Source: Eledone cirrhosa
Lineage: Eukaryota
Direction: 5' to 3'
Length of the DNA: 64,000 nucleotides
NCBI GenBank assembly: GCA_964016885.1
Contig: OZ024749.1
Span: 29,574,001 to 29,638,000 of the forward strand
Both the position numbers and the translations under genes were made by a program. This document shows, in pieces, positions 5,683-5,921 of this stretch (positions are counted from its first letter, which is position 1; every line of letters starts with the position of its first letter). The notes below the pieces were generated by a model. The model saw only the letters and a program-made list of their open reading frames with translations, ran no database searches and was not told the origin of the DNA.

Positions 5683-5711
<29 letters not shown>

Positions 5712-5713
<2 letters not shown>

Positions 5714-5869
5714 GGAACCGGTAAGACCCCGACGGCTGAGCTCAAGCCGTTTCGACGGCTAATTCTAGACGTCGGGGTCTTACCGGTTCCTATTACCCAC
5801 TCTACTACCCCAAGTATTGAGTACTTTGGTGCGTTATGGTCCACCTGGTTCCTTACCACATTTCCTTCG

Positions 5870-5871
<2 letters not shown>
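5712..5871 (+). mobile_element. Family A element in (TA)n, present only in copy 1
   Basis: Inverted arms ggaaccggtaagaccccgac / gtcggggtcttaccggttcc, then the family A tail; the matching tract in copy 2 holds a different insert. Confidence 0.85.

Positions 5872-5921
<50 letters not shown>

Follow-up and report, generated by a model that had tools for sequence, protein, structure and literature searches.

Probable allelic insertion of two different Penelope-type sequences into one (TA)n tract of Eledone cirrhosa

The locus and its two copies

The window (the whole stretch of DNA analysed, 64,000 nt of contig OZ024749.1 in Eledone cirrhosa assembly GCA_964016885.1) contained two near-identical copies of one region, with a scaffold gap between them (Table 1). 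In both copies, a (TA)n tract between matching flanks was interrupted by an insert, in the order flank, (TA)n, insert, (TA)n, flank, the insert being A in copy 1 and B in copy 2. Next to the tract, the left flank of copy 2 had one TG less than that of copy 1 and was otherwise the same. Left-flank sequence (window 5160-5490) had two full-length matches in the 3.0-Gb assembly, which were 100% identical and corresponded to the two copies, and the junction of B, TA, and flank occurred a single time. The right flank was a very high-copy repeat. Because its TA-abutting end recurred across many loci, the tract appears to sit inside a chain of older insertions. A preliminary description of the locus, in which identical flanks enclosed a different, unrelated insert in each copy and A occupied 5712-5871, was borne out by the layout of both loci, with the reservation that the matching right "flank" is itself this repeat. 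The same description treated B as a sequence of about 275 bp (31582-31856); B is indeed an unrelated insert but not a separate element of that size, being a truncated 274-nt piece of a 594-bp unit.

The comparison of the copies was extended beyond the window by 40 kb upstream and 20 kb downstream. The overlap began 5,099 nt upstream of the window and measured 24,545 nt in one copy (haplotype 1) and 26,085 nt in the other (haplotype 2). After masking, 10,451 sites could be aligned, 42 of which were SNPs (0.40%). The contig ends dovetailed exactly across the 200-N gap, and for this reason the copies are very probably haplotypes of one heterozygous locus assembled twice, not paralogs; the duplicates of the preliminary description would then be alleles. 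Uncollapsed haplotypes would be expected to give such a dovetail wherever contigs break, whereas a true tandem duplication would need a break exactly on its junction. A gap between the members of a duplicated pair is listed as one mark of false duplication (PMC9516828), and the heterotype duplications treated there resemble the present case in consisting of near-identical neighboring copies with a gap between them.

Five tracts in the overlap differed by inserts between haplotypes, among them the A/B tract, insert C, a double A-family piece, and insert D. Haplotype 2 had B as its only private insert, and three further TA-associated inserts were found in haplotype 1 only. Compared to other copies in a small library (261 records), B was 99.3% identical, C was 99.1 to 99.5% identical, and both pieces at 14994 had 0 mismatches; inserts shared by the haplotypes ranged from 87% to 98.6%, and some of these were also young (98.6% and 97.7%). 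D matched at no more than 86.6% in this library and is uninformative for age. The genome holds many Penelope-like elements (PLEs), with 10,596 GIY-YIG candidates, 150 of which were scored. One of the fetched loci (L147:1775-5062) contained a PLE frame open for 1,096 aa amid (TA)n, with an RVT_1 match (E value, 7e-10), a CX4CxxC linker, and GIY-YIG at the C terminus, and is a candidate for recent activity in another clade. At L008:2340-2600 (reoriented), (TA)n adjoined a further fold-back element, whose hammerhead core was canonical (CTGAAGA..GAAA).

Table 1. Window coordinates of features at the two copies of the locus
Feature	Positions	Strand	Remarks
Contig end left of gap, likely haplotype 1	1-19445	+	Ends at base homologous to 45730
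(TA)n left of A	5692-5713		22 nt
Insert A	5712-5871	+	Fold-back PLE 3' end plus tail
A arm	5712-5765		Inverted copy of PLE 3' end
3' half of parent's hammerhead-like motif in A	5712-5765	-	GAAA, stem III, GUC, stem I strand; read by eye from parent
A fold-back junction	5766-5770
A direct copy	5771-5792		Last 22 nt of PLE
A tail	5793-5871		Start of parent's 5' UTR; 80 nt
(TA)n right of A	5871-5920		50 nt
Right flank, common to both haplotypes	5921-6092		Two high-copy repeat pieces with (TA)n between
Insert C	6846-7187		Haplotype 1 only; beside (TA)n; short direct repeat resembling target-site duplication
Pair of A-family pieces within a single (TA)n tract	14994-15340		Haplotype 1 only; haplotype 2 has plain 100-nt tract
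Insert D in (TA)n	15617-15844		Haplotype 1 only; haplotype 2 has plain 41-nt tract
Scaffold gap between copies	19446-19645		200 N
Contig start right of gap, likely haplotype 2	19646-45730	+	First base homologous to window position -5099
(TA)n left of B	31481-31582		102 nt
Insert B	31582-31855	-	274 nt from fixed end of 594-bp retrozyme-like unit
3' part of B's hammerhead-like motif	31794-31855	-	GAAA, stem III, GUC, stem I strand; core beyond truncation
(TA)n right of B	31856-31870		15 nt

Insert A and its Hydra-type parent family

Comparison with its relatives showed insert A to be a fold-back of the final ~55 nt of a Hydra-type PLE, joined to an 80-nt tail. A search with A gave 1,107 first-look candidates, 40 of which were scored; the two hairpin arms of the copies covaried, and the loop differed from copy to copy. 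The coding parent family was reached through a pattern search, and the tail used alone as a query produced no matches, its words being too common. The tail lay directly 5' of a PLE open reading frame (ORF) in 19/25 loci, and the arm corresponded to the 3' end downstream of the PLE ORF in the 11 extended loci listed (of 12). The young end motif of the family had 119 matches genome-wide, compared to 0 for a reversed control, and the same young end was carried by L262, a tandem copy of 3,537 bp whose frames were broken. Near-full parents of A are present in the genome. Within the subfamily to which A belongs (19 loci), exactly one tail was found in 19/19 loci, two arms were found in 15 by pattern and in a 16th by eye, and 16 elements were 141 to 212 nt long. 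The copy in the window matched the subfamily sequence apart from one base in the fold-back junction. Across loci L206 to L235, young Hydra-type fold-backs ended both arms at nearly the same point in hammerhead stem II, with the 80-nt tail on just one of the arms.

The tandem parent copy contained RWR, DKT, YRDD, and CxCX5C motifs, a C-terminal YIG, and CxxC and CxH. The DKG-to-DKT change and the CxCX5C linker were thus present in the parent, RWR stood where RWK is expected, YRDD was followed by VIYQC..YIG near the C terminus, and CxxC and CxH were placed around E and N. Insertion in (TA)n, partial tandems, an inverted 5' copy, and a one-sided tail were all present. Compared to Hydra clade PLEs as described by Craig et al. 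(2021, PMC8557442), the parent shares DKT, CxCX5C, the C-terminal YIG, CxxC, and CxH, as well as these four structural features. It differs from them in having RWR and not RWK, a length of 3.1 to 3.5 kb versus <3 kb, a tail of 80 nt versus 30 to 40 nt, and a U3-A8 versus a canonical hammerhead core; most young copies of the A family are, in addition, cut to <215 nt, unlike the copies described for that clade. The clade call rests on motifs, since Pfam assigned no family to either of the two parent peptides scanned, and the parent is best termed Hydra-type, short of a proven member of the Hydra clade.

A canonical hammerhead was not found in the parent's pLTR. The parent's end had the topology of a hammerhead in a U3-A8 variant, with TTGANAA in 32/35 copies and all four bases at N; the hammerhead descriptor missed this motif owing to a bulge in stem II. 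The UUGANAA core was absent from A itself. The U3-A8 hammerhead is a published PLE variant from Schistosoma (PMC4209133); the parent of A and insert B's unit likewise carry UUGANAA with a variable position 7 and differ from the minimal motif described there in having a full helix III.

Insert B and its retrozyme-like unit

The search with B gave 2,931 first-look candidates, and the 39 other scored matches were 99% identical. From 90 loci, 71 distinct insertions were recovered, 70 of which started at the same point. TA was present at this fixed start in 67/71 insertions and at the variable end in 53/71. The insertions were between 149 and 1,202 nt long and comprised as many as two copies of a 594-bp head-to-tail unit. 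The junction between units was identical in 33/37 cases; 44 insertions exceeded one unit, a number inflated by the choice of 30 loci with the unit's far end. Among neighboring ends of B insertions, 51/142 matched at least four loci (fetched set, overlapping loci included). For the copy in the window, we infer an RNA 3' end at 31582, with truncation at 31855. An inverted copy of B's fixed end adjoined B at one locus (L024), and an adjacent inverted copy is described as a PLE signature (PMC8557442). A sister retrozyme-like family of ~600 bp (4,211 first-look candidates; L236 to L260) was 73% identical to B and had the same fixed end, and a copy of it was fused directly behind a B copy at L083:1601-2476.

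A hammerhead descriptor that allowed U3-A8 matched B once, on the minus strand, and also matched the homologous place in the sister family; shuffled sequences gave 1/2,000. Position 7 in the B family was T in 48 copies and A in 13. Stem II lacked the usual G10.1-C11.1 pair, its base being mismatched, and the copy in the window stops within stem II. A search for canonical CUGANGA did not detect the motif, and Rfam reported no hammerhead on the B dimer, only three chance matches; for six loci, the Rfam matches listed (150/189) were only microsatellite-driven, miRNA-type matches below the gathering score. The missing stem II pair and the lack of an Rfam hammerhead in B count against activity.

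The unit was noncoding, with no long ORF and with frameshifting indels relative to the sister family. Residual coding on the plus strand was considered and rejected because of these indels and the lack of consistent codon periodicity. No autonomous partner or parent of B was found among 73 PLE-bearing loci (tblastx). Helitrons carry 5'-TC and 3'-CTRR ends. Neither was seen by eye in B, and B combines a hammerhead-like motif with an inverted copy of its end, which makes a Helitron or rolling-circle DNA mechanism less likely. Assignment to Naiad PLEs was also rejected, as these combine the absence of a hammerhead with a parent bearing an N-terminal endonuclease, and B has a hammerhead-like motif.

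B appears to behave like an animal non-LTR retrozyme, with a putative hammerhead and predicted cleavage and circular RNA. Like the animal retrozymes described previously (PMC7229834; bioRxiv 10.64898/2026.07.22.740005), it is a noncoding unit in head-to-tail order, has a single type I hammerhead-like motif in each unit, has a length within the reported 51 to 972 bp, and coexists with PLEs. It differs from those described in being dispersed as 0.25 to 2 units in (TA)n rather than in long arrays (in this sample) and in having a U3-A8 core and a stem II whose loop is long and whose base is imperfect.

Origin and significance of the two alleles

The end structures, read together with the cited papers, are consistent with a mechanism in which (TA)n is nicked by a PLE endonuclease and the ends so exposed serve as primers for reverse transcription. 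In the case of A, both of them would have primed, the first at the tail end and the second at the pLTR end, and synthesis would have stalled inside some 60 nt. In the case of B, a single end would have primed at the fixed site, and copying would have ended after 274 nt; the mobilizing enzyme is putative. Each insertion would leave flanking TA on both sides, which could lengthen and then take another element.

By the comparisons above, A and B represent two mobile families that are young, unrelated to each other, and nearly always located in (TA)n genome-wide. We consider it probable that two Penelope-type insertions took place separately, on different chromosomes, in the tract of one heterozygous locus. 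Two separate insertions into the tract are needed in every history considered, assembly error excepted, and gain is favored over loss because most of the polymorphic inserts have near-identical copies elsewhere. The preliminary description had proposed two independent recent insertions; two separate insertions from young families were supported, and insertion after the split of the copies was not established. B carried two private substitutions (present in 1/75 and 1/54 copies), a number typical for the family (mean, 2.8 in 13 other copies). The probability of at least two such changes was 0.11 to 0.30 for 0.2 to 0.4% per lineage; should the site be as little diverged as the left flank, where divergence is near zero (2/2,278), it falls to 0.002. 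The changes fit the divergence of the right flank (0.8%) but not that of the left. Because of this misfit, B cannot be dated after the split, and it may be about as old as the separation of the haplotypes or predate it.

SNPs were significantly rarer to the left of the site (2/2,278; window 1-5700) than to the right (18/2,264; window 6201-9400; Fisher test, P = 0.0002), and this jump in density suggests a recombination boundary near the insert-site TA tract. The only two SNPs of the left flank lay in a 192-bp near-identical repeat pair (window 3326-3517 and 3851-4042). Satellite arrays also differed in length, with about 106 versus 84 copies of a 50-bp satellite (window 19822-25205 versus -4923 to -707) and 18 versus 3 copies of a 91-bp satellite (window 34972-36615 versus 9394-9673). 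Such length differences, the 0.40% SNPs, and the five inserts could also arise in young paralogs, that is, after a true recent tandem duplication of 25 kb in which each paralog later took its own insertion, the history nearest to the preliminary description. That history is nonetheless distinctly unlikely, as the assembly break would have had to hit the duplication junction exactly at both contig ends, and the mosaic SNP density is that expected of recombining alleles. Still less credible, and in our view very improbable, is an assembly error by which one insert was mis-joined from another locus through a long TA tract. The site is surrounded by long TA tracts and high-copy neighbors, and the inserts are known from the assembly alone, but the flanks are colinear for kilobases in both copies, and neither the two private substitutions of B nor its junction recurred in the other fetched copies or elsewhere in the assembly. 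Among the matches listed for Logan contigs (4 runs, 2 samples), none bridged B and the flank, which does not count as evidence because repeats interrupt short contigs.

Loss was weighed against separate gain on the two chromosomes. A and B may once have stood in a single allele (A-TA-B), an element being later lost from one or both haplotypes by TA-TA recombination, or the insertion of B having deleted A. Consistent with this, A-family ends lay directly across a TA tract from B in 2/71 B insertions, TA on both sides of each insert would make removal traceless, and B's private changes allow an age before the split. Such a history would require precise losses, either one or two, in addition to the two insertions themselves; moreover, the oldest shared elements in the overlap (87 to 89% to other copies) were kept, while the polymorphic ones mostly have near-identical copies, and the duplication-like repeat at insert C points to gain. 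We regard loss as unlikely, and separate insertion on two chromosomes is retained as the preferred reading.

The pair itself had been taken as direct evidence of targeting and ongoing mobility, which overstates it on both counts. The overlap contained 35 to 38 merged TA tracts of ≥10 nt, four of which had an insert in haplotype 1, and the chance that B lands in one such tract, given TA-only insertion, is ~4/36 (0.11). The sharing of one tract by A and B is therefore a modest coincidence. Targeting is better demonstrated by the other copies of both families, and the mobility indicated is recent rather than ongoing.

The A/B pair is a real but expected outcome of PLE-type elements crowding into the TA repeats of this genome, and the element types and their TA preference are of known kinds. 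Insertion of PLEs and retrozymes into (TA)n has already been described; target reuse and insertion polymorphism are rarely seen directly. Beyond work on CanSINEs, a brief look at the literature found no account of parallel insertions in microsatellites, which does not imply their absence from print. The locus contributes two probable alleles whose inserts differ, together with a glimpse of how dense insertion polymorphism can be. The uncollapsed haplotype pair allows alleles to be compared and reveals at least five TA-associated insertion differences in 25 kb, including one tract where each haplotype has a different insert. The overlap region may be unusually divergent, given that it failed to collapse. 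A probable false duplication in the assembly is flagged as well, and caution is warranted for presence/absence markers within TA tracts, which are prone to parallel insertion. A broader and tentative possibility, which we hold to be doubtful, is that (TA)n tracts serve as multiallelic landing pads used by a Penelope element and retrozyme community. If so, five tracts in 25 kb would translate into heterozygous insertions numbering in the hundreds of thousands in each individual. Sites occupied by two different inserts would number in the thousands, some of them produced by element replacement, and haplotype-resolved reads would directly measure PLE target choice and turnover.
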